The position numbers and the translations under genes were made by a program. A stretch of 59,022 nt of DNA from Candidatus Udaeobacter sp. GTDB taxonomy: Bacteria; Eisenbacteria; RBG-16-71-46. The stretch is taken from positions 1-59,022 of the forward strand of contig DATJEP010000030.1 of the NCBI GenBank assembly GCA_035496475.1, read 5' to 3'. The notes under the pieces are model-generated. The model had not been told where the DNA came from, ran no database searches, and saw only the letters and a program-made list of their open reading frames with translations. This document shows, in pieces, positions 4,354 to 36,671 of this stretch. How positions within the stretch are numbered: the first letter of the stretch is position 1; every line of letters begins with the position of its first letter.

Positions 4354-5348
4354 CACTGGACGAACGCGACTTCCGCGGCGACCGGGGTGGTGGCGCGCTC
4401 GAGCTTCACCACGGCCTCGTCGCCGCGGACGCGCTCGAGCGCCGCGATCGCGACCTCGCACATCGACAGATCGGGCTCGCGCGTGGTCAGACGCTGGAAC
4501 TGGATCCCGGGCCAGGTCAGCACGCGCACGATCGGCTGATCGGCGTAGCGGCCGGAGAGACGGATGAATTCGAACGCCACGCCGGCGATCAGCGGCATGC
4601 TGGCGATGCGCAGCAGGTGCTGGACGATCGAGGTCGGGCGGCCGATCAGCGTGAACACGATGATGCTGATGATCACGACCAGGAAAAGGAACGTGGTGCC
4701 GCAGCGCGGATGGAAGCGCGTGAAGCTCTGAACGCTCTCCGGCGTCAGCGGTGCGCGATTTTCGATGGCGTGGATCGCCTTGTGCTCGGCGCCGTGATAG
4801 CCGAGCACGCGCGCCATCTCCTTCCACTGGCTGATCAGCAGCAGGTAGAGCACGAAGAAGAGCAGGCGGAAGCCGCCGTCGACGAGACCGAACTGGAAAC
4901 GGTCGTGAACGCCGAGCCAGCCGGTGAGCTTGGCCGGGAGCACCACGAACAGGAAGAGTCCGAGCGCGAACGCGAAGATCATCGCCACGCCCTGGAGTGC
5001 CGACATCGCCGCCGCGCCCTTGGCGCTGGAGCTCGGAACGGTCGCGGTGTCAGCAGGGTCGGCCGGCGTCACCGCTTCGGGAGCACGATCGGGCACGGCG
5101 TCCCGCGACGCCTCCTCGGCGCTCCAGTTGAGCGCGGTGATCCCGAGGAACAGAGTCTCGAACAGCGAGACCGCGCCGCGAATCACCGGCAGTTTGAGCA
5201 GCCGGTGTGAAGCGATCACGGACTTGAAAGGTCGCTCGGTGGTGGCGATCGAGCCGTCGGGACGGCGCACGGCGACCGCGATCCGCGAGGGCGATCGCAT
5301 CATCACCCCTTCGATCACCGCCTGACCGCCGACTGGGAGAAACGGCAT
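4353..5348 (-). CDS. DUF1385 (YqhQ-like) polytopic membrane protein
   Basis: Carries the [15 protein letters not shown] and [11 protein letters not shown] motifs. The ATG at 5348 is preceded by GGAG. The track ORF starts 15 nt further up at a TTG. The rpmE-DUF1385-prfA-prmC neighbourhood is typical. Confidence 0.8.
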
Positions 5349-5420
5349 GAGCACTCCAGACAAGGCAACGGCTCCCGGCCGCTCGCGGAATCGCGACGAC
5401 GGGGAGCCGTGCCGAGGCAG

Positions 5421-5669
5421 CTAATTCTGTGACGTCGTCGCTTCGGCCTTCTCGTCCTTCTTTTGGCCCTTCGAATAACGCTTGCGGAAGCGCTCGACGC
5501 GACCGGCCTTGTCGAGCAGCTTCTGCTTGCCGGTGAAGAACGGGTGGCAGGCGGCACAGATTTCGACGTGCAGCTCGGGCTTGCCGACCGTGGAGCGCGT
5601 CTCGATGACGTTGCCGCAGACGCACACGATCTTGGTCAGCTCGTAGACCGGATGAATGCCAGCTTTCAT
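5421..5669 (-). CDS. rpmE: 50S ribosomal protein L31
   Basis: The translation MKAGIHPVY...VCVCG...[13 protein letters not shown] is typical of zinc-ribbon type L31. Confidence 0.93.
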
Positions 5670-5813
5670 GGGATGGACCTCAGGAAGCCGACGGCGGCGT
5701 CGGACGATCCGTACGCCAACCCGCCGGGGATTGCGGCGAGGGAGTATGCCCGAAGCGGCAGGCGAATGCCAGCCGCCGCGGCTCGCTTCAGATGCGGGAG
5801 GGCCTGGGGCGGT

Positions 5814-6545
5814 TCAATCGCCCTCGTAATGGTCGTAAACGCGCTTGAGATCGATCGCCGGCCGGTCGCCGCGTGAATCGCGGTGCGTGATCACGATCAA
5901 TTGCTTGGCATCCTTCGAGAGCTCGAAGGTCTGCGACATCTTGCCGCCCCGATCGGACGTTCTCTCGGCCACGAGATCGGTGCCGCGCCATTTCGCCTGA
6001 ACATGCGGGGATTCGGGCTCGACTGCGGCGGCCGCCGTCGCGACGTCGCCGAGCGTGATCACCTCGATCGTCTGCCCGCGTTCGCTCAGCACCACGGTGC
6101 TGTCGGTCTGTTCAACCAGCATGGTGAGCGGCGGCCGCGCGAGCGAACGCATCATTGGGTCGGCTGATCGGCCATCCGGTGGAGCGCCTTCCGGCCCGCC
6201 ACTCCCCGAAGTGCCTTCTTCGCCCTGCCTTCCCGATTCGCCGCCCTCGCCGCCACCATGCCGATGTCCACCCCAGCCACCACCACCGCCACCGCCATAG
6301 CCACCGCCGCCGCCCATTCCACCACCCATGCCGCCGCGATGGCCGCCCCAGCCGCCTCCTCCGCCCCCGCCGTGCTCCGCCATCTTCTGCTGCAGCGTCT
6401 CGCTCTGTTTTTCGTTGAGCTTCCACAGGCCTCCGAGCGTGGGCACAGACTTGGCGTCATCGGACGCGGCCGAACGCGCGAGCAGCGAGGCGGCGATGAT
6501 GAAAAGGGCGGTCATGCCGGGTAAGCGTCCGTTTCGTGGGCTCAT
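5814..6545 (-). CDS. Secreted protein with a central Gly/His/Trp/Met-rich low-complexity block
   Basis: Signal peptide MSPRNGRLPGMTALFIIAASLLARSAAS. The start could be 6545 or 6515. The longer track ORF would run into the divergent gene. Contains a GGGGGGGWGGHRGGMGGGMGGGGGYGGGGGGGWGGHRHGGG block followed by a globular C-terminal domain. Confidence 0.6.
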   Translation of the reverse strand: MSPRNGRLPGMTALFIIAASLLARSAASDDAKSVPTLGGLWKLNEKQSETLQQKMAEHGGGGGGGWGGHRGGMGGGMGGGGGYGGGGGGGWGGHRHGGGEGGESGRQGEEGTSGSGGPEGAPPDGRSADPMMRSLARPPLTMLVEQTDSTVVLSERGQTIEVITLGDVATAAAAVEPESPHVQAKWRGTDLVAERTSDRGGKMSQTFELSKDAKQLIVITHRDSRGDRPAIDLKRVYDHYEGD

Positions 6546-13142: not shown

Positions 13143-13157
13143 TGGCACATGGCTTGC
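13143..13157 (+). promoter_or_regulatory. Sigma-54 (-24/-12) promoter, TGGCAC-N5-TTGC exact
   Basis: The plus strand reads tcTGGCACatggcTTGCgg. No credible plus-strand ORF lies downstream. Confidence 0.5.
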
Positions 13158-21214: not shown

Positions 21215-24200
21215 ATGCGATCGCGCGCGCTGCTCCTGCTGCTCGGGTTGCTCGCCGCGGTTCCCGCGCGGGCCGAGTCCCTCCGCCTCACCCTCCTTCA
21301 TACCAGCGATCTGCATGGCGCGCTCGATGGCTGGGACTACCTTGCCGACCGTCCGGCGGCCCGGGGTCTGACCCGGATCGCGACGCTGGTGCGGCGCGCG
21401 CGCTCCGAAGGCACGCCGACTCTCCTCGTCGATGCCGGCGACGCGATTCAGGGCGGTGTCGAGGTCGCGATGCCGCACGTGAGCTCCGCTCCCGTCGCCC
21501 GGGCCGATCCCATGATGTCGGCGATGAGCGCGATCGGATACGACGCGATGGCGGTCGGGAATCACGAGTTCGACTTCGGCCAGGACGCGATCGAGCAGGC
21601 TCGCCGGGCCGCGCGCTTTCCCTGGCTCTCGGCGAACCTCCTTCGCGACGGCAGCCCGCTGCCGGTCTTCGCGCCGTCGGTCATCAAGATCCTCGGCGGC
21701 GCCCGCGTCGGGATCGTCGGCCTCACCACTCCCGCCACCGCGGCCTTCGAGGATCCGGAAAACCTGGCGGGCTGGCACTTCGTCTCGCCGCTCGAAGCCG
21801 CGCAGCTCGAAGTCGGGCGCCTGAGGGAGACCGAGCACTGCGACGTCGTCGTCGTGCTGGCGCACACCGGACTCGAGCGCGATTCGCTGCGCGGCGCGGC
21901 GCGTGCCGGCGAGACGCCGGACGAGAACTGGGGGCTGCGTCTCGCCACCGAGGTCCCGGGCGCCGACATCGTGATCCTCGGCCACACGCACGAGGTGATT
22001 CCGTGGCGGCGTTACGGCAATGTGCTCGTCACTCAGGCCGGTCGTTCGGGCGAGCAGCTCGGACGCATCGACCTCACGCTCGAGCGCGACGGAGCCCGCT
22101 GGAAGCTGATCAATGCCTACGCTCGCATGATCGCGGTCACCGACTCCGTGCCGGATGACTCGGCGCTCACCGCGCTCGCCGAGCCCTATCACGCCGCGGC
22201 GCGTGACAGCCTGAGCCGCGTGGTCGGCACGCTGAGCCAGTCCCTCGATTCCGGATTCGGACGGGCCACGCCGAATCCGGCCTGGCGTCTCGTCGCCGAG
22301 GCCATGCGCCAGGCCAGCGGCGCGGACATCGTCCTCACCACGCTTCCCGACACCGCGTCTCGAATCCCCGCCGGCCCGGTTCGAATGCGGGACGTGAGAC
22401 GGCTCTATCCCTACGACAACACGCTCGACGTCGTGGAGCTGACCGGCGCCGAGCTGCGCGGGGCGCTCGAACAATCCGCCGAGGCGTTCAATACCTACAC
22501 CGGCGAGGCCGGGCGTCCGCTCTTCGACTTCGCGTATCCATCATGGAATTACGACGCCGCGCTCGGCGTCCGTTACGCCTGGGATCTGACCCAGCCGCCC
22601 GGCCACCGCGTGGTCGCGCTCTCGATCGGCGACCAGCCGCTCGCGGCCGATCGAACCGTGAAGGTCGCGCTCAGCAGCTATCGCGCGAATGGCGCGGGTG
22701 GATACGAGTCCCTGAAGGGCGCCCGCCGCGTCGCGCGCGTGGCGCGGCCGATTCCGGATCTCATCGCCGACCTGCTCAGCGCGGAGCGACCGCACCAGGC
22801 GACTCCCGAGGTCGATCCCTGGCGCATCCAGCCCGATTACGCCGCGCTTCCCGAACGCGACCTCATCGACCGCCTGGTCCGTCAGGGAGTGCTCACGCTC
22901 GACGAGATGAAATCGGTCCGGGCGACCGAGCCGGCGCTGCAGGGCCAGGCGGCGACGTGGCTGGCGCGGGCGTTCGGATGGGGACATCCCGATCGCCCGC
23001 CGGTCGCGCGCACCGCCGCCGATTCGGTCGATCACTATGCCGCGGCGCTGGCGGCGCGGGACGTGATCGCGAAGCGCATGTTCCGCGCGGGCGAGCCGGT
23101 CAGCGAATCGCTGGCGGTGCTGTGGAGCGAGCGTATCGCCGAAGTGGTGGGATACGAGAACGCGCGCCGCGATCGCGCCGTGCTGCGCCGCTCGCTCTTC
23201 ACCGGCGTGCATCCGCTCACACTGACCGGCCAGACCGAACCTGCCGCGCGGCTGCTCGGCATGATCTCGAACCTGCGCTATCCGACGCTGCGCGTGATCG
23301 AGACCAGCGACGTGCACGGCTTCATCCTGCCCGGAGCGCGCGAGCGGCGCACGCGGCGGCCGGTCGGCGGCAGCGCCGCGCTGGCTTCGTGGGTCCGCCG
23401 GTTGCGGGCCGAGAATCCCGAGGGAACGATCCTGCTGGACGGCGGCGACTGGTTCCAGGGCACGATGATCTCGAACCTCCAGTTCGGCCGGCCGATCGTC
23501 GAGCAGATGAACCTGCTCGGCTACACCGCGGCCGCGATCGGCAACCATGATTTCGACTGGGGCGTCGACACGCTGGCGCGGCGCATCGGTGAGATGCGCT
23601 TCGCCGCGCTCGGCGCCAATTGCGTCGAGCGGAAGAGCGGCCGGCTGCCGCGCTATGCGCGCGCCGACACCGTGGTGGTTCGCCGCGGCGTGCGGGTCGG
23701 GATTCTCGGACTCTGCTTCCGCGAGACGCCGACCGTCACGCTGCCGAAGAACGTCGCGCACCTGAGATTCGAAGACGACTCGGCGACCGCGGCGCGCCGG
23801 GTGCCCGAGCTGCGCCGGCGCGGGCACGCGCAGGTGGTGCTCTCGGTCGGGCACATCCCGGCCGAGACGGACAGCACGAACCGCGCCGCCTCCGGCGATC
23901 TTCTGCGGCTGGCGCGTGGCGTTCACGGAGTCGACGCATGGCTCGGCGGCCACAGCCACAACAACGTGGTCGATGCGGTCGGCGGTGTCCCGGTGATGAT
24001 TCCCGGCGCGCACGCCGAAGTGGTCGGCGTCATCGATCTGACGTTCGATCCTCTGGCCGGCCGCGTGATCGAGCATCGCGAATGGCTGCAGCCGACCTAT
24101 TCCGACATCCTGCCCCCCGATTCGGCGATGGCGGCGCGGGTCACGAAGTGGAACGCCGAGGTGGCTCCGCTGGCCGCTCAGCCGGTCGGCCGCGCGGTCC

Positions 24201-29786: not shown

Positions 29787-31229
29787 CTACGGACCGCCGC
29801 GGCCTCCATGGTCGTCGCGGTTGTCGCGGTTGTCGCGGCTGTCGCGGCCGGGAGGCGGCTGCTTCGGCCCGTTGTCGTGAGGCCGTTCATCGCGGTGACC
29901 GCCGCCATTGTCGCGCGGATGATCCTCGCGGCCGCGCGGCTGATGTTGAGGCTCCTGGCGCTCGACCGGATGCCGGTCGATGCGCGGCTCCGCCGGTCTT
30001 TCGACTCGAGGAGGGGGTGCGTCGCGGCCGCTCCTGCCCGAGCCACCGTCATCGCCCGTGCGTCCAGCCGGCATGCGACCCACATCGGGCCTGCGCCATT
30101 CGGTCCCTCCGGGGCTTCGACGATCACGTCCGTTGTCCTGGCTGACGGGGATTCTCTCGGCCGGCTCGCGCGCGACGTCCGGCCGCCGCGGCGTGCGATC
30201 GGAGTCCGCCGGACGATTGCGTCCGATCGGCAGGGATCCGATTCCACCGCGCCTCACTCCGGATACGACGAACCCCGGTGGAGGTGGCGTGGTTCCACCT
30301 CGCCAGTCCTTGTAGTGATCCGGCGGCGTGTAGCCGACCGGCGGAGGCGACTTGTAACGCACCAGGGGACCGCCCCAGTTCTGAGTCCATCGCCTCCAGC
30401 CATCCCATGAGGACAGCCAGGGCTGGCCGCCCACGCGCCAGCGCGGCGGGCAGTCCGGGCGATAGACGAACACGTAGTAGGGAACGAAGCCGCACCAGTA
30501 GGTCGGGCCCCAGCCCCACGACCAGTTGACGCGGAAGTCCACCACGCGACAGCTCGTGTAGTAGGGATCCCAGCCGTCCCACCATGCCCAGCGACCCGGC
30601 CGGTGGCAGTCGTTGCAGATGTAGCGCGGATAGCGGACCTGCTGATGCACGTAGTACGTGGTGTAGGCGGTCGCGAAGGATTCGGTGTCGTTGGGATGCG
30701 ACACCACGCGGCGACGGATGCGCTCCATCGCGACGAATGGATCGCCGACGATCCTTCCATCCTGGGTCACGCCTTCTTCGTCGGTGGGCTCGTTGACGTA
30801 GCCGATGTCGTCGCCCTGTGCGTCGAACGGGCGCAGGTACCAGGGCAGATCCTCGAACGGCTCGCGCGACGCGATGGCGACGATGAAATCCTCGCCGATC
30901 GGATCCTGCACCACGAGCTGGTTTTCGTCGTCCTCGGGGGGAACGCGATAGGTCTCGCGCGCTGCCACCATGCCGTTCTGTCCGCGCAGGGGATAGAGCA
31001 CGCGCACGTAGCCCTGGGAGTCGATCTCGTAGACCAGCAGGTAGGCGTCGTCGGTCGCGCGGGTGCGGACCTGGAGAACGTCGCCGGGCTCGTAGATCGC
31101 GTCGTTGCCGCGATCGGTCCAGAGGTCGATGCCGATGTGCCGGGCCTCTGCCGGGCTCGCGGCCATCAGCGAGCCGAGCAGGATCAACGAAGCGAGGCAG
31201 GAACCGGCGGATGCGATCGAGCGCTTCAT
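29787..31229 (-). CDS. DUF4384-domain secreted protein with a Trp/Cys/Tyr-rich middle and an Arg/Asp/Pro-rich disordered tail
   Basis: Signal peptide MKRSIASAGSCLASLILLGSLMAASPAEA. DUF4384-like segment YEPGDVLQVRTRATDDAYLLVYEIDSQGYVRVLYP. W-rich block WAWWDGWDPYY...WSWGWGPTYW. Confidence 0.7.
   Translation of the reverse strand: MKRSIASAGSCLASLILLGSLMAASPAEARHIGIDLWTDRGNDAIYEPGDVLQVRTRATDDAYLLVYEIDSQGYVRVLYPLRGQNGMVAARETYRVPPEDDENQLVVQDPIGEDFIVAIASREPFEDLPWYLRPFDAQGDDIGYVNEPTDEEGVTQDGRIVGDPFVAMERIRRRVVSHPNDTESFATAYTTYYVHQQVRYPRYICNDCHRPGRWAWWDGWDPYYTSCRVVDFRVNWSWGWGPTYWCGFVPYYVFVYRPDCPPRWRVGGQPWLSSWDGWRRWTQNWGGPLVRYKSPPPVGYTPPDHYKDWRGGTTPPPPGFVVSGVRRGGIGSLPIGRNRPADSDRTPRRPDVAREPAERIPVSQDNGRDRRSPGGTEWRRPDVGRMPAGRTGDDGGSGRSGRDAPPPRVERPAEPRIDRHPVERQEPQHQPRGREDHPRDNGGGHRDERPHDNGPKQPPPGRDSRDNRDNRDDHGGRGGP
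29811..29846 (-). repeat. Four tandem 9-bp units (gtcgtcgcg gttgtcgcg gttgtcgcg gctgtcgcg) encoding RDSRDNRDNRDD
   Basis: The repeat was read directly from the sequence. It lies inside the 3' end of the DUF4384 gene. Confidence 0.85.
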
Positions 31230-31407: not shown

Positions 31408-32241
31408 CTAACGACTCCCTACCGCGCCGGCCGCGAGCGATGCGGCGGTGCGCCGCGTGCGCGCACCGTCTTCACCCGCGGGGCGGGCGCGCAACTCCCG
31501 ATTGTTGGGATCGGTCTGATACGCCCAGTCGAACACCACCTGGCTCGACGAGATCGAGATCACGCGGAACTTCGCGTAGTTCACGGTGGTGGCCCCGAGC
31601 CTGAGCACGTAGCAGTGGCCCGCGATCAGCTCGACCGTTCCGGTCGAGGACCATCCGGCCGAAGGAGCGAAATCGACGGCGTCGAGGCTGGTGGCATAGC
31701 CGGCGTCCTGAATGTCGGTATCCGTGAAGGGGCACACCATCTGCGGCGTGCCGCCGACCAGCTGGTAGTACATGTCGGTGCTGGGATCGTCCCAGGGCCG
31801 GACCGTGAAGGCCGAGAAATCCCATCCGCTGGTCGAAGGCGATGACGTCTTATCGCTCAGCCCCTGATTCGTCCCGGCGGGGCGAGGGGTGTCGTGGATC
31901 GTGTCGTACGACAGGTCGCTCTCGTTCCCCGCCAGGTCCACCGCCGAAACCGCGAAGTACTTGGTCACGCCATCGGTGAGCCCGGTGATCGTGAACGAAG
32001 TCGCGGGGGTGGATCCGACACGGGTATAGGCGCCATTGGCGGTGTTGCCGATGTAGACGCGATAGAGGGCGAGATCGCCTTCGGTGTTCTGGAGCCAGTG
32101 GAGGGTGACGCTCTGGTCTCCGGTGACGCTGTACACGCCGCGCGGCGCTGCCGGAGGCGTGCGGTCCTGAGGTGAGGTCTGGTCATCGCAGCCGGCCAGG
32201 AACACGGCTGACACCATCATCAGAATCCACAGTTTCCGCAT
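31408..32241 (-). CDS. Lipoprotein with a fibronectin type III domain
   Basis: GAAGGAGG lies 5 nt before the ATG at 32241. Lipobox: MRKLWILMMVSAVFLAGC. FN3-like segment PPAAPRGVYSVTGDQSVTLHW...YRVY...YFAVSAVDLAGNES. Confidence 0.8.
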   Translation of the reverse strand: MRKLWILMMVSAVFLAGCDDQTSPQDRTPPAAPRGVYSVTGDQSVTLHWLQNTEGDLALYRVYIGNTANGAYTRVGSTPATSFTITGLTDGVTKYFAVSAVDLAGNESDLSYDTIHDTPRPAGTNQGLSDKTSSPSTSGWDFSAFTVRPWDDPSTDMYYQLVGGTPQMVCPFTDTDIQDAGYATSLDAVDFAPSAGWSSTGTVELIAGHCYVLRLGATTVNYAKFRVISISSSQVVFDWAYQTDPNNRELRARPAGEDGARTRRTAASLAAGAVGSR

Positions 32242-32290: not shown

Positions 32291-32305
32291 GCAATCGATG
32301 TGCCA
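32291..32305 (-). promoter_or_regulatory. Sigma-54 (-24/-12) promoter, TGGCAC-N5-TTGC exact, for the FN3-lipoprotein operon
   Basis: The minus strand reads gcgTGGCACatcgaTTGCgc. The -12 element lies 50 nt upstream of the ATG and SD. Confidence 0.6.
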
Positions 32306-32365: not shown

Positions 32366-32418
32366 AAAACGCGACGGCCGCCCGCGGTCCTCTCGGGACC
32401 GGAGGCGGCCGGATCGCG
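32366..32418 (-). terminator. Intrinsic terminator: CGCGA-tcc-GGCCGCC-t-CCGGTCC-cgaga-GGACCG-cg-GGCGGCC-g-TCGCG followed by TTTT
   Basis: The composite stem of about 18 bp and the T-tract on the minus strand were read directly from the sequence. Confidence 0.5.
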
Positions 32419-32677
32419 CTGGAGTGTGGCGTCGCCGCAACGGCGCGAAGCCACTCTGGAATACGGGGACACCAGTCGAGCTGCAACGTGACTACAGCCG
32501 AGACATCCCCCAGTGTTGGCCCGCGGTCACGAATCGAGCCGGTGTCCCACACCTGAGCTCGCCACGGGACACGGCGACCGATACACAAGAACCGGGTCAA
32601 CCGTGAAGCGGTCGACCGCGGCTCCGAGGTGAGACTCAGGCTTTATTCTTCATTGCTTCTGGATCTGCACGTTCCAA

Positions 32678-32759
32678 GCTAGCCGGTCGTAAAGGGCGGT
32701 GCGCTGTCATGTGACTGGGGCTCGTACCCTCGACCGGATCCTTTACTGCACCGGCTAGC
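32678..32759. repeat. 82-nt inverted repeat / long hairpin (gctagccggt-c-gtaaagg ... cctttac-tgc-accggctagc)
   Basis: The 10-bp and 7-bp complementary arms were read directly from the sequence. Confidence 0.7.
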
Positions 32760-32830
32760 CCAGATTGTGGTTCGACAACTTGCGCTGCCGAACTTTTTTG
32801 GAGGTCCCCCCCCTCCGCCGACGTGGTAGA

Positions 32831-32845
32831 GCACCCCGCGTGCCA
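32831..32845 (-). promoter_or_regulatory. Sigma-54-like element TGGCACG-N4-GTGC
   Basis: The minus strand reads cTGGCACGcgggGTGCTc. The -24 element is perfect, and the -12 element has G instead of the first T. Confidence 0.35.
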
Positions 32846-33060
32846 GATGCAATGACCCTGGCAAGCAAATCTTCATCGCATTACGCGACAGCGGATTACG
32901 GGCTCGTTCCGCGGACGGGGATGGCGGCGCCGCGAAACCGCGACCGGCCGATTCCTAAGATAACTATCGAATGACCCACGTGACCGGCTAAGTGCCGATG
33001 GCACATGGGTCTGAGTATAAAATGACTTAATAGTCGATCGCGGCGGTTTCGGAGGGTTTG

Positions 33061-36141
<3,081 letters not shown>

Positions 36142-36233
36142 TTTCGAACCCTCGATTTACCCGCACACCCGGTTGAGCGCCCCGGCGGTTCGTTCCGGAA
36201 CGCCGAAAAAACGAACTGACGTTGAATCGACTG

Positions 36234-36518
36234 CTACCGATCCAACCCCAGCTGTACCGCCGCCCAGATTCTGCTGGCCCAATAGAACCGGAGCGCATTA
36301 CCGATGGTCGAGGCGCTCTCGTTCCCGGGCGCGATCGAAGCACTGGTCTTCTTCACGCTCGGAACGTCGGGTTCTCCCGTGTACGGGCTCACGACCGGGT
36401 CGCTCCCGAAGGAGTCCCAATCGGTCTGGATCGCAGCATTCGCAACACCGCGAACGCTGAAAAGCCCGACCGCGAGAAGGGCCAGCAGGATCAGGAGCCT
36501 GTTGCGGAGTCTCGTCAT
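36234..36518 (-). CDS. Small secreted protein (94 aa), no recognised family
   Basis: Strong SD (GGAGAAGGAGGGGG) before the ATG. Signal peptide MTRLRNRLLILLALLAVGLFSVRGVANA. It lies 92 nt upstream of the activator gene on the same strand. Confidence 0.5.
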   Translation of the reverse strand: MTRLRNRLLILLALLAVGLFSVRGVANAAIQTDWDSFGSDPVVSPYTGEPDVPSVKKTSASIAPGNESASTIGNALRFYWASRIWAAVQLGLDR

Positions 36519-36553
36519 TAACTTCCCCCTCCTTCTCCAAAAACTGGCGGCTG

Positions 36554-36595
36554 AAAAAAACTTTCACACCAGTCGACTAGGAGGAAACCGACTGG
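36554..36595 (-). terminator. Hairpin (ccagtcg/cgactgg) plus T7 tract 8 nt downstream; possible terminator of the ArsR-Ppx operon
   Basis: The hairpin was read directly from the sequence. The gap between stem and T-run is atypical. Confidence 0.3.
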
Positions 36596-36671
36596 TATCA
36601 ATATTTTTGAATCGAGGGGACCGCCTGCCATTCGGTGCCGGGCAAAGTATCCGCCCACCCGGCGAATGGCG

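Follow-up and report, generated by a model that had tools for sequence, protein, structure and literature searches.

What does the apparently empty stretch between an activator gene and a lipoprotein gene contain? This question was raised by a gap of about 820 bp in the window studied here, which comprises positions 1-59,022 (nucleotides, nt) of contig DATJEP010000030.1, a high-GC metagenome contig whose proteins best match Candidatus Eisenbacteria. On the minus strand, the genes are arranged in the order small secreted-protein gene, gene of an enhancer-binding protein (hereafter the activator), gap, fn3 lipoprotein gene and DUF4384 gene. A first-pass annotation of the sequence had described the gap as a region without a credible gene and with a lower GC content than its surroundings. 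Both descriptions were borne out. The gap is also empty in the source's own gene calls, and no Pfam match was obtained for either of the local open reading frames (ORFs) of 65 aa (32679-32876, minus strand) and 69 aa (32765-32974, plus strand). The GC content is 0.57-0.63 over 32600-33100 as compared with 0.65-0.75 around it, which is a real but modest dip. Judging from the sequences of this locus and its relatives, the gap very probably encodes a structured non-coding RNA that is driven by a sigma-54 promoter, ended by a terminator and belongs to a family specific to Eisenbacteria.

The predicted RNA gene and its ends

Eighty genome loci were collected via the lipoprotein protein family, and a pattern taken from the RNA yielded at least 120 metagenome contigs among the matches listed. 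All metagenome counts given below are likewise counts among the matches listed. In all Eisenbacteria genome loci with enough flanking sequence, a spacer of 0.8-1 kb separates the end of the activator gene from the lipoprotein gene downstream of it. The RNA was found between the activator gene and a second promoter (P2) in the genomes of more than 50 Eisenbacteria species and in at least 100 metagenome contigs. The 3′ end of the activator gene is located upstream of the RNA in all genome loci and in 82 of the 83 scorable metagenome loci, and the lipoprotein gene is located downstream in 92 of the 98 that could be scored. In three of the lipoprotein exceptions, a DUF4384 gene follows P2, directly in L144 and L178 and after a different small (lipoprotein) gene in L160. 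Since the fn3 gene is missing or replaced in these three loci, it is the activator and the DUF4384 gene that constantly accompany the RNA, and not the fn3 protein. One further metagenome match (L131) possessed no flanking gene and no P2-like site and was situated inside long ORFs; it was taken as a chance match.

Spacer blocks 70-86% identical to the window were detected by BLASTN within otherwise divergent spacers, and the conservation profile contains several near-invariant stretches. A covariance model of the RNA (model R1) detected one site per Eisenbacteria locus and no second copy in the window. No match of model R1 was observed in WOR-3, Gemmatimonadota or other loci with a lipoprotein homologue. 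When the window and 11 relatives were scanned with Rfam 15, which covers families including CrcZ, Qrr, GlmY/Z, CsrB/RsmZ, 6S, OLE, raiA and riboswitches, no match was obtained at the gathering threshold, and only noise (miRNA, terminator-like) appeared at E < 10. The first-pass annotation had named a hit to a known or mobile element as an outcome that would speak against it, and none was matched in these scans. No published description of the RNA family was found in the literature. The RNA family is new to Rfam, and its regulatory kind, a sigma-54 RNA beside its activator, is already known. Its size, three-domain fold, phylum-wide conservation and homopolymer match to the start of the activator coding sequence (CDS) are unusual.

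Promoter P1: The minus-strand sigma-54 promoter that the first-pass annotation had reported at 32845-32831 was recovered with one mismatch from TGGCAC-N5-TTGC, and it is conserved in the relatives. By the window alone, matches of this type are not above chance (3 versus 2.6 expected). In the relatives, the GG-N10-GC frame of P1 was detected upstream of the 5′ hairpin in all genome loci and in 106 of 106 scorable metagenome loci. In every locus, P1 is followed, about 12-14 nt on, by an invariant GGAGG-G(n)-ACCUCC hairpin (H1). An IHF-like conserved motif, gCAAcnnnTTAnnaGAtTgt in the relatives, was also observed some 20-60 bp upstream of the P1 -24 element, at about 32860-32900 in the window.

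Promoter P2: This second sigma-54 promoter was absent from the list of the first-pass annotation. All loci contain TGGCA(C/T)-N5-TTGC, and its distance downstream of H1 is 400-640 nt except in four outliers (707-1083 nt). In one of these, L033 (about 4830-5930), the H1-P2 distance of 1083 nt as compared with the usual ~500 indicates an insertion of about 0.5 kb in the variable region of the RNA. Apart from the promoters of this locus, the window contains a third perfect TGGCAC-N5-TTGC match, TGGCACATGGCTTGC at 13143-13157 on the plus strand, which may be another sigma-54 promoter.

Terminator: The strong terminator was found at the place given by the first-pass annotation, which had used it to delimit the region. 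It forms the end of the unit, which reaches past the left boundary given there, to 32366. Its two arms (32375-32390 and 32396-32411) are 16 nt long and 88% complementary. In the relatives, about 30 of 55 loci have a stem of 10-14 bp with a T-run behind it at a distance of 70-100 nt upstream of P2, and 9 of 12 terminator pairs showed compensatory changes. One clade of nine loci (L003, L008, L009, L011, L012, L022, L024, L030 and L035) possesses a U-run, CCGGUGUCCUCAUUUUU, right after the closing helix of domain B and no strong GC terminator further on, and the RNA may be about 330 nt long there.

Fold of the RNA and features of the locus

The minus-strand RNA from 32835 to 32350 was predicted to fold with z = -5.5 against dinucleotide shuffles. 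The positions of the domains are listed in Table 1. A covariance model gave 90-152 bits on the forward strand and at most 27 on the reverse. In domain A, an invariant UG pair was present in 51 of 51 sequences, and many of the invariant pairs are G-U. Since these pairs would be A-C mismatches on the opposite strand, the minus strand is the RNA strand. Conservation of the stems in relatives was the check that the first-pass annotation had proposed for its structures, and compensatory changes were found, as described below.

Hairpin H1: The C8 run (32806-32813), the T6 run (32794-32799) and the GGAGG/CCTCC arms (32800-32816) had been noticed in the first-pass annotation and are all present, and the hairpin formed by the arms and the G run is a genuine RNA structure. 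H1 is invariant in all relatives apart from the length of the G run, which varies from 5 to 8 across lineages. The idea that the G tract is phase-variable gained no support, as the tract is the loop of an otherwise invariant hairpin.

Domain A: The reported 82-nt inverted repeat has perfect 10-nt arms (32678-32687/32750-32759), which become a helix of 13 bp (32674-32686/32751-32763) when G-U pairs are included. Thus, the inverted repeat is the closing helix of domain A. The structure of this domain was built by hand and was tested first on a plain MAFFT alignment and then on an Infernal realignment (model R1, alignment A4). On the plain alignment, 86% of the cells of 46 pairs were paired and 103 cells were changed on both sides versus 39 in shuffles; here the shuffle control was not beaten on all measures, and 28-49% were paired in the slid control. 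On the Infernal realignment, 89% of the cells of 45 pairs were paired, 19 pairs were changed on both sides, and 0 of 500 shuffles did as well on any of five measures, the two strict ones included. The same test with 94 independent metagenome sequences gave 45 pairs, 88.5% paired and 18 changed on both sides, again with 0 of 500 shuffles on the five measures.

Domain B: On alignment A5, 26 pairs were 87% paired, 18 of them were changed on both sides, and 0 of 500 shuffles matched this result. When the 3′ partner was moved by 1-3 columns as a slid control, only 28-50% were paired in domains A and B. The stem GTGTCCC/GGGACAC of the first-pass annotation can form in the window, but conservation does not extend to its upstream arm; the partner with which GGGACACC forms the conserved helix is a downstream segment, 32466-32479.

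Domain C: Analysis by RNAalifold and pair counts showed that the hairpin of this domain is 81% paired, with 5 of 11 pairs changed on both sides. This hairpin is degenerate in the window (UCGCGC/GCGCGA). The domain C hairpin and the terminator together comprise 24 pairs and were 82% paired, as compared with 35-50% in the slid control, which is moderate support.

Linker: An extra hairpin, CCUCC-GUGGGAU-GGAGG followed by GACGGC, was observed in the linker of L013, L016, L020, L025, L027, L037, L038, L039 and L043. It provides a third G-rich, GGA-containing loop in many relatives, and the lineage of the window is without it.

Table 1. Positions of the predicted RNA gene, its elements, the candidate target and the neighboring genes in the window
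Feature	Position	Strand	Description
Whole predicted RNA gene	32366-32820	-	~455 nt; P1 and terminator bracket a block conserved in all Eisenbacteria loci
Predicted start site	about 32820	-	~12 nt past the -12 GC of P1
P1, sigma-54-type promoter	32831-32845	-	TGGCACGCGGGGTGC, TGGCAC-N5-GTGC; -24 GG and -12 GC correctly spaced
H1, 5′-terminal hairpin	32800-32816	-	GGAGG-GGGGGGA-CCUCC; G-run loop complementary to the activator C7 run
H2, variable hairpin	32770-32793	-	GUUCGGCA/UGUCGAAC in the window; 8/8 pairs with compensatory changes across species
Domain A	32674-32763	-	13-bp closing helix CUGGGCUAGCCGG/CCGGCUAGCUUGG, then helices P2 and P3, three-way junction
Invariant segment, domain A three-way junction	32717-32730	-	AGGGUACGAGCCCC
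Copy of the activator Shine-Dalgarno (SD) box, domain A	32722-32733	-	UCGAGGGUACGA
Variable linker	32549-32673	-	Lineage-specific hairpins (conservation profile and alignment)
Conserved linker motif ACCCGGU	32591-32597	-	Reverse complement of ACCGGGU in the activator 5′ untranslated region (UTR)
Domain B	32466-32548	-	Long helix GGGACACCGG.../...CUGGUGUCCC around two inner helices and an apical ACA-YUGGGGGA-UGU hairpin
Invariant segment, domain B	32502-32515	-	CACUGGGGGAUGUC
Domain C region	32415-32449 (about)	-	In relatives, hairpin CGGUGU-GCGCC/GGCGC-ACACCG with conserved loop CACACCUGAGUC
Intrinsic terminator	32366-32411	-	GC-rich hairpin 32375-32411, then UUUU 32366-32369
P2, perfect sigma-54 promoter	32291-32305	-	TGGCACATCGATTGC; promoter of the fn3-lipoprotein/DUF4384 operon, outside the RNA
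Activator translation-initiation region	36121-36173	-	Proposed target
ACCGGGU, activator 5′ UTR	36167-36173	-	
Activator SD box	36144-36155	-	UCGAGGGUUCGA
Activator GTG start	36139-36141	-	
C7 run	36121-36127	-	+15 to +21 of the activator CDS; flanks GAUC/GAUY
Small secreted-protein gene	36234-36518	-	
Activator (enhancer-binding protein) gene	33061-36141	-	1026 aa, GTG start; TPR, GAF, AAA+ (sigma-54 interaction; Sigma54_activat) and HTH_8 by Pfam
fn3 lipoprotein gene	31408-32241	-	277 aa; first gene downstream of the RNA
DUF4384 protein gene	29787-31229	-	After the fn3 lipoprotein gene

The start of the activator mRNA as candidate target

The start of the activator gene is conserved across the phylum as UCGAGGGUUCGAAa GUG CAG CGA GCG AUC CCC CCC GAU. 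The first 24 nt of the CDS are near-invariant at the nucleotide level, synonymous sites included. The C7 run was present in 37 of 44 species, and codons 6-7 are CCC CCC (Pro-Pro) in 38 of the 44. Elsewhere in the same activator genes, CCC makes up 34% of the Pro codons and CCG 58%. The CCC CCC pattern was likewise observed in 37 further metagenome loci among the matches listed. Since the C run is flanked by GAUC/GAUY, it may be shown as a C6 loop.

In the 59-kb window, C or G runs of at least 7 nt occur on the two strands in two places only, H1 and activator codons 5-7. In 538 kb from 53 relatives, 110 such runs were counted versus about 446 expected from composition, and the two conserved sites make up 89 of the 110 (81%). 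Across these loci (L001-L077), C/G runs of this length are about four-fold rarer than composition predicts, and the others are scattered and not conserved.

The C run and the H1 loop are complementary over at least 7 nt in 41 of 44 species. In 40 of 44 species, GGGGGAU of domain B finds its complement AUCCCCC in the activator mRNA. Linker and 5′ UTR contain complementary 7-mers of some kind in 35 of these 44 species; ACCGGGT itself was detected in 19. Furthermore, the 12-mer TCGAGGGTWCGA occurs exactly twice in the window, in the SD region of the activator and in domain A of the RNA. In the consensus fold of the activator leader, the C run pairs in cis with GAGGG of the SD box and with CGGG of the UTR motif. 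In the leaders of the lipoprotein mRNA, which are variable, no conserved complement to the conserved loops of the RNA was seen. A hairpin of the activator 5′ UTR, GCGUUCCGG-AACGAACC-GCCGGGGCGC, was also observed at 36177-36203 (minus strand), upstream of ACCGGGU and the SD box; its arms covary between species, and its loop ..GAACGAACCG.. is conserved.

Taken as a whole, the locus is best explained by a sigma-54-driven RNA that feeds back on its own activator, a reading that we hold with some, not high, confidence. The neighboring activator is likely to control P1, and probably P2 as well, to judge from the adjacency of the genes. As for the mechanism, we prefer an action of the RNA on the activator's own mRNA, and we propose it tentatively, its chances being close to even. 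The activator, responding to its signal, would switch on P1 and probably P2. The two invariant G-run apical loops of the RNA, H1 GGAGG-G5-6A-CCUCC and UGGGGGAU of domain B, would pair with the C7 run of the activator, probably in a loop-loop "kissing" contact, and ACCCGGU of the linker would additionally pair with ACCGGGU of the activator 5′ UTR. Since cis pairing between the C run and the SD box is predicted for the free mRNA, capture of this run by the RNA would remodel the ribosome-binding site. We lean towards activation via an anti-antisense route, in which a self-sequestered ribosome-binding site is freed and positive feedback results; repression is also possible. Since the exact copy of the SD box is folded against the RNA's own C run, the RNA may partly act as a mimic of the leader. 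A stronger form of this idea, in which the RNA is a structural mimic and competitor of the activator initiation region and its G loops kiss the C loop at synonymous sites, seems doubtful to us. We are similarly hesitant about the suggestion that an RNA-based feedback switch of hitherto undescribed design acts here on a sigma-54 enhancer-binding protein, and that the elaborate fold could add a sensing or protein-binding function to it.

Several observations weigh against the feedback reading. The 5′ and 3′ ends of the RNA and its stability are inferred from sequence. No enhancer site common to P1 and P2 was detected by dyad and k-mer enrichment; hence it is adjacency that ties the RNA to the neighboring activator. 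No intermolecular compensatory change between the G runs and the C run was observed, because both pairing partners are almost invariant. In one species (L054), the C run is lost and the RNA loops are intact. The cofold energies of the RNA hairpins with the leader were no better than those of shuffled hairpins, by a method that cannot represent kissing loops. In addition, domain C might overlap an enhancer for P2, in which case part of the 3′ conservation would be at the DNA level. Finally, a three-domain RNA of 455 nt conserved phylum-wide exceeds the needs of a simple antisense RNA, so that its main function could be protein binding, sensing or catalysis. As for RNAduplex, it returned meaningless giant duplexes on full-length sequences and was uninformative.

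Alternative readings and comparison with known systems

CsrA-type proteins recognize GGA in hairpin loops, and the CsrA consensus obtained by systematic evolution of ligands by exponential enrichment (SELEX) is RUACARGGAUGU. The RNA might accordingly be a decoy, the conserved hairpin loops of which titrate an RNA-binding protein, either of the CsrA type or a translational repressor whose usual binding site is the activator SD box. Both invariant loops end in GGA just before the 3′ arm of the stem, ACA-YUGGG-GGAUGU of domain B fits the flanks of the SELEX consensus apart from a 4-nt insertion, and many relatives carry the linker hairpin CCUCC-GUGGGAU-GGAGG as a third loop. The exact copy of the SD box in the RNA, and the strong conservation of its stem sequences, which is typical of protein-recognized or tertiary-folded RNAs, fit this explanation as well. 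CsrA homologues have been reported in Eisenbacteria, so that a protein of this type exists in the phylum (PMC13443453). However, the conserved GGA loops are only two to three in number (the third in some clades) and the 8 GGA triplets are about what composition predicts, whereas known sponges have 5-22 sites and at least five loop GGA motifs are typical of a CsrA-sequestering RNA. Moreover, CsrA binding leaves the G5-7 run and the invariant synonymous-site C7 run of the activator unexplained, and the conserved neighborhood yielded neither csrA nor another gene for a candidate protein. We consider a decoy, the main rival of the feedback reading, unlikely. A cis-acting leader (riboswitch or attenuator) of the lipoprotein/DUF4384 operon, at which transcripts from P1 would stop or read through according to a ligand or factor sensed by the fold, is less probable again. 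The RNA always precedes P2 and the DUF4384 operon, and a complex, terminator-ended fold conserved phylum-wide upstream of one operon is typical of riboswitch architecture. In such an architecture, however, no promoter would intervene and an alternative antiterminator would be present. Here, the perfect and universally conserved P2 lies between the terminator and the operon, so that the operon has its own regulated start and a cis-leader is unlikely. No antiterminator pairing with a terminator arm was seen when the domain C and terminator sequences were inspected, the U-run that one clade has right after domain B suggests that transcription stops earlier still, and the matching motifs in the activator mRNA would be left unexplained.

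Two further explanations dispense with a functional RNA altogether, and we regard each of them as very improbable. According to one, the conservation reflects DNA-level control (enhancer, IHF sites and promoters) of the flanking units. Sigma-54 promoters do need upstream enhancer or bending sites, AT-rich palindromes and the IHF-like motif are located upstream of P1, and domain C is located 110-150 bp upstream of P2, at a distance that would suit an enhancer. The covariation disfavors this explanation, since protein sites conserve sequence, not pairing, and more than 50 base pairs are kept through changes on both sides. The invariant UG pairs (51/51) would be A-C on the opposite strand, the structure model strongly favors one strand, and a promoter and a terminator bracket the block. 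According to the other, the gap holds a small protein, the remnant of a mobile element or a phase-variable switch based on the G8 tract. The window does contain ORFs of 65-69 codons, homopolymer tracts can mediate phase variation, and the G run varies from 5 to 8 among lineages. In a survey of 55 loci, however, the place and frame of the ORFs differed between species, 5 loci had no forward ORF of at least 20 aa, and the ORFs that cross the invariant motifs do so in all three frames; the coding reading was rejected. Since the G run sits in a non-coding hairpin loop, a change in its length cannot shift a reading frame. No mobile-element signature was detected: synteny is strict, each locus has a single copy, and neither a transposase nor repeat ends are present.

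The feedback reading can be compared with activator-adjacent sigma-54 RNAs (CrcZ, NrsZ, Qrr1, GlmY and Pxr), and the predicted RNA matches this class in being a discrete gene with a sigma-54 promoter next to an activator gene. In Pseudomonas, crcZ is reportedly located immediately downstream of cbrB, which is the same gene order as here. CrcZ and CrcY are also regulatory RNAs of about 400 nt with a sigma-54 promoter under the direct control of an enhancer-binding protein, CbrB. CbrB activates CrcZ from the sigma-54 promoter, and IHF is also required (PMC6296734). In contrast to the predicted RNA, CrcZ has repeated A-rich motifs that sequester Hfq/Crc; repeats of this kind are absent from the window RNA, which resembles CrcZ neither in sequence nor in structure, has no Rfam match and possesses three covarying domains and G-run loops. 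A further difference is that the window activator is no response regulator; its sensor domains are of the TPR and GAF types.

The Vibrio gene qrr1 adjoins luxO. The Qrr small RNAs are likewise sigma-54-dependent RNAs under an enhancer-binding protein, LuxO, and they pair with the luxO mRNA in a feedback loop (PMC3262071). However, they are about 100 nt long, depend on Hfq, use a single-stranded seed and repress luxO. The window RNA is four to five times longer and phylum-wide, and its proposed contacts are apical G-run loops on a C7 run within the coding region. In Pseudomonas aeruginosa, nrsZ is an intergenic gene next to ntrC with an RpoN promoter, and its CTGC at -12 resembles (G/C)TGC of P1 (PMC4253122). 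NrsZ differs in consisting of three similar modules that are processed apart and in targeting rhlA; the window RNA has no repeated modules and no homology to it.

The proposed route of activation has a counterpart in DsrA, RprA and ArcZ. The rpoS leader sequesters its own ribosome-binding site, and these trans-acting RNAs pair with the sequestering segment and free the site. The logic proposed here is the same, as the SD box of the activator leader is paired with the C run in the consensus fold. In our case, however, the sequestering segment is downstream of the start codon, in the CDS, and the pairing would be loop-loop between homopolymer runs. The CsrB/RsmZ sponges share GGA at the 3′ end of hairpin loops and mimicry of the SD region of the target leader. 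In contrast, the window RNA has two to three conserved sites, a promoter of the sigma-54 type instead of a GacA-dependent one and no Rfam match, and its long G runs are not a CsrA requirement. In length (>400 nt), multi-domain structure, the number of covarying pairs, invariant loop and stem nucleotides and conservation across a deep lineage, it resembles the large conserved bacterial RNAs OLE, GOLLD, ROOL and raiA; no similarity to these RNAs was found by Rfam searches, and the window RNA is tied to a sigma-54 promoter and one activator gene, a concrete regulatory context that the others are not known to have.

Large, deeply conserved structured RNAs are rare, and each discovery has opened a line of work. 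The present one comes from an uncultivated soil and groundwater phylum. Since the promoter type is defined, the activator is a neighbor and the predicted target site is specific, the function can be tested in a heterologous host without culture. For annotation, the new covariance-model family provides a marker for a gap of 0.8-1 kb that is otherwise empty in the Eisenbacteria genomes examined. If the feedback reading is true, the sigma-54 activator/RNA feedback logic of Proteobacteria would also operate in a distant phylum, in a mechanistically different form that uses homopolymer loop-loop pairing inside the CDS. If the target reading holds, the RNA would account for the odd invariant CCC CCC codon pair.

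Some structures that had been reported around the gap lie outside the RNA. The stem near 32975-33010 is present (32973-32982/33002-33011, 90% complementary), but it is not part of the RNA unit. This GACCCATGT hairpin (32973-33011) is located upstream of P1 and hence not in the RNA; it belongs to the 3′ UTR of the activator transcript and is probably its terminator. In an alignment of 50 loci, its arms covary, its loop or center ..CACUUAGC.. is conserved, and AT-rich flanks and then a T-rich run are present. The first-pass annotation had further proposed that the activator and small secreted-protein genes are bracketed by atypical DNA. This view was not upheld, as both patches are normal spacers of the terminator/promoter kind; the AT-rich one at 36530-36620 simply lies between genes and contains a terminator-like hairpin together with the ribosome-binding site that serves the small secreted-protein gene.

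The AT-rich patches at 32950-33040 and 36566-36612 have a common layout, which consists of an A/T near-palindrome, a hairpin with a C(C/U)UAG loop and a T-rich run. Many relatives have TATCAA-N5-TTGATA as the near-palindrome; the window has TCAAAAATATTGA at 36596-36608. The two patches may simply be A/T-flanked terminators, or a single DNA-binding protein may recognize both. Elsewhere in the window, ARAGORN predicted a tRNA-Arg(TCG) at 21351-21441 (minus strand). As its 91 nt are long for tRNA-Arg, an insertion, an intron or a mis-prediction is possible.

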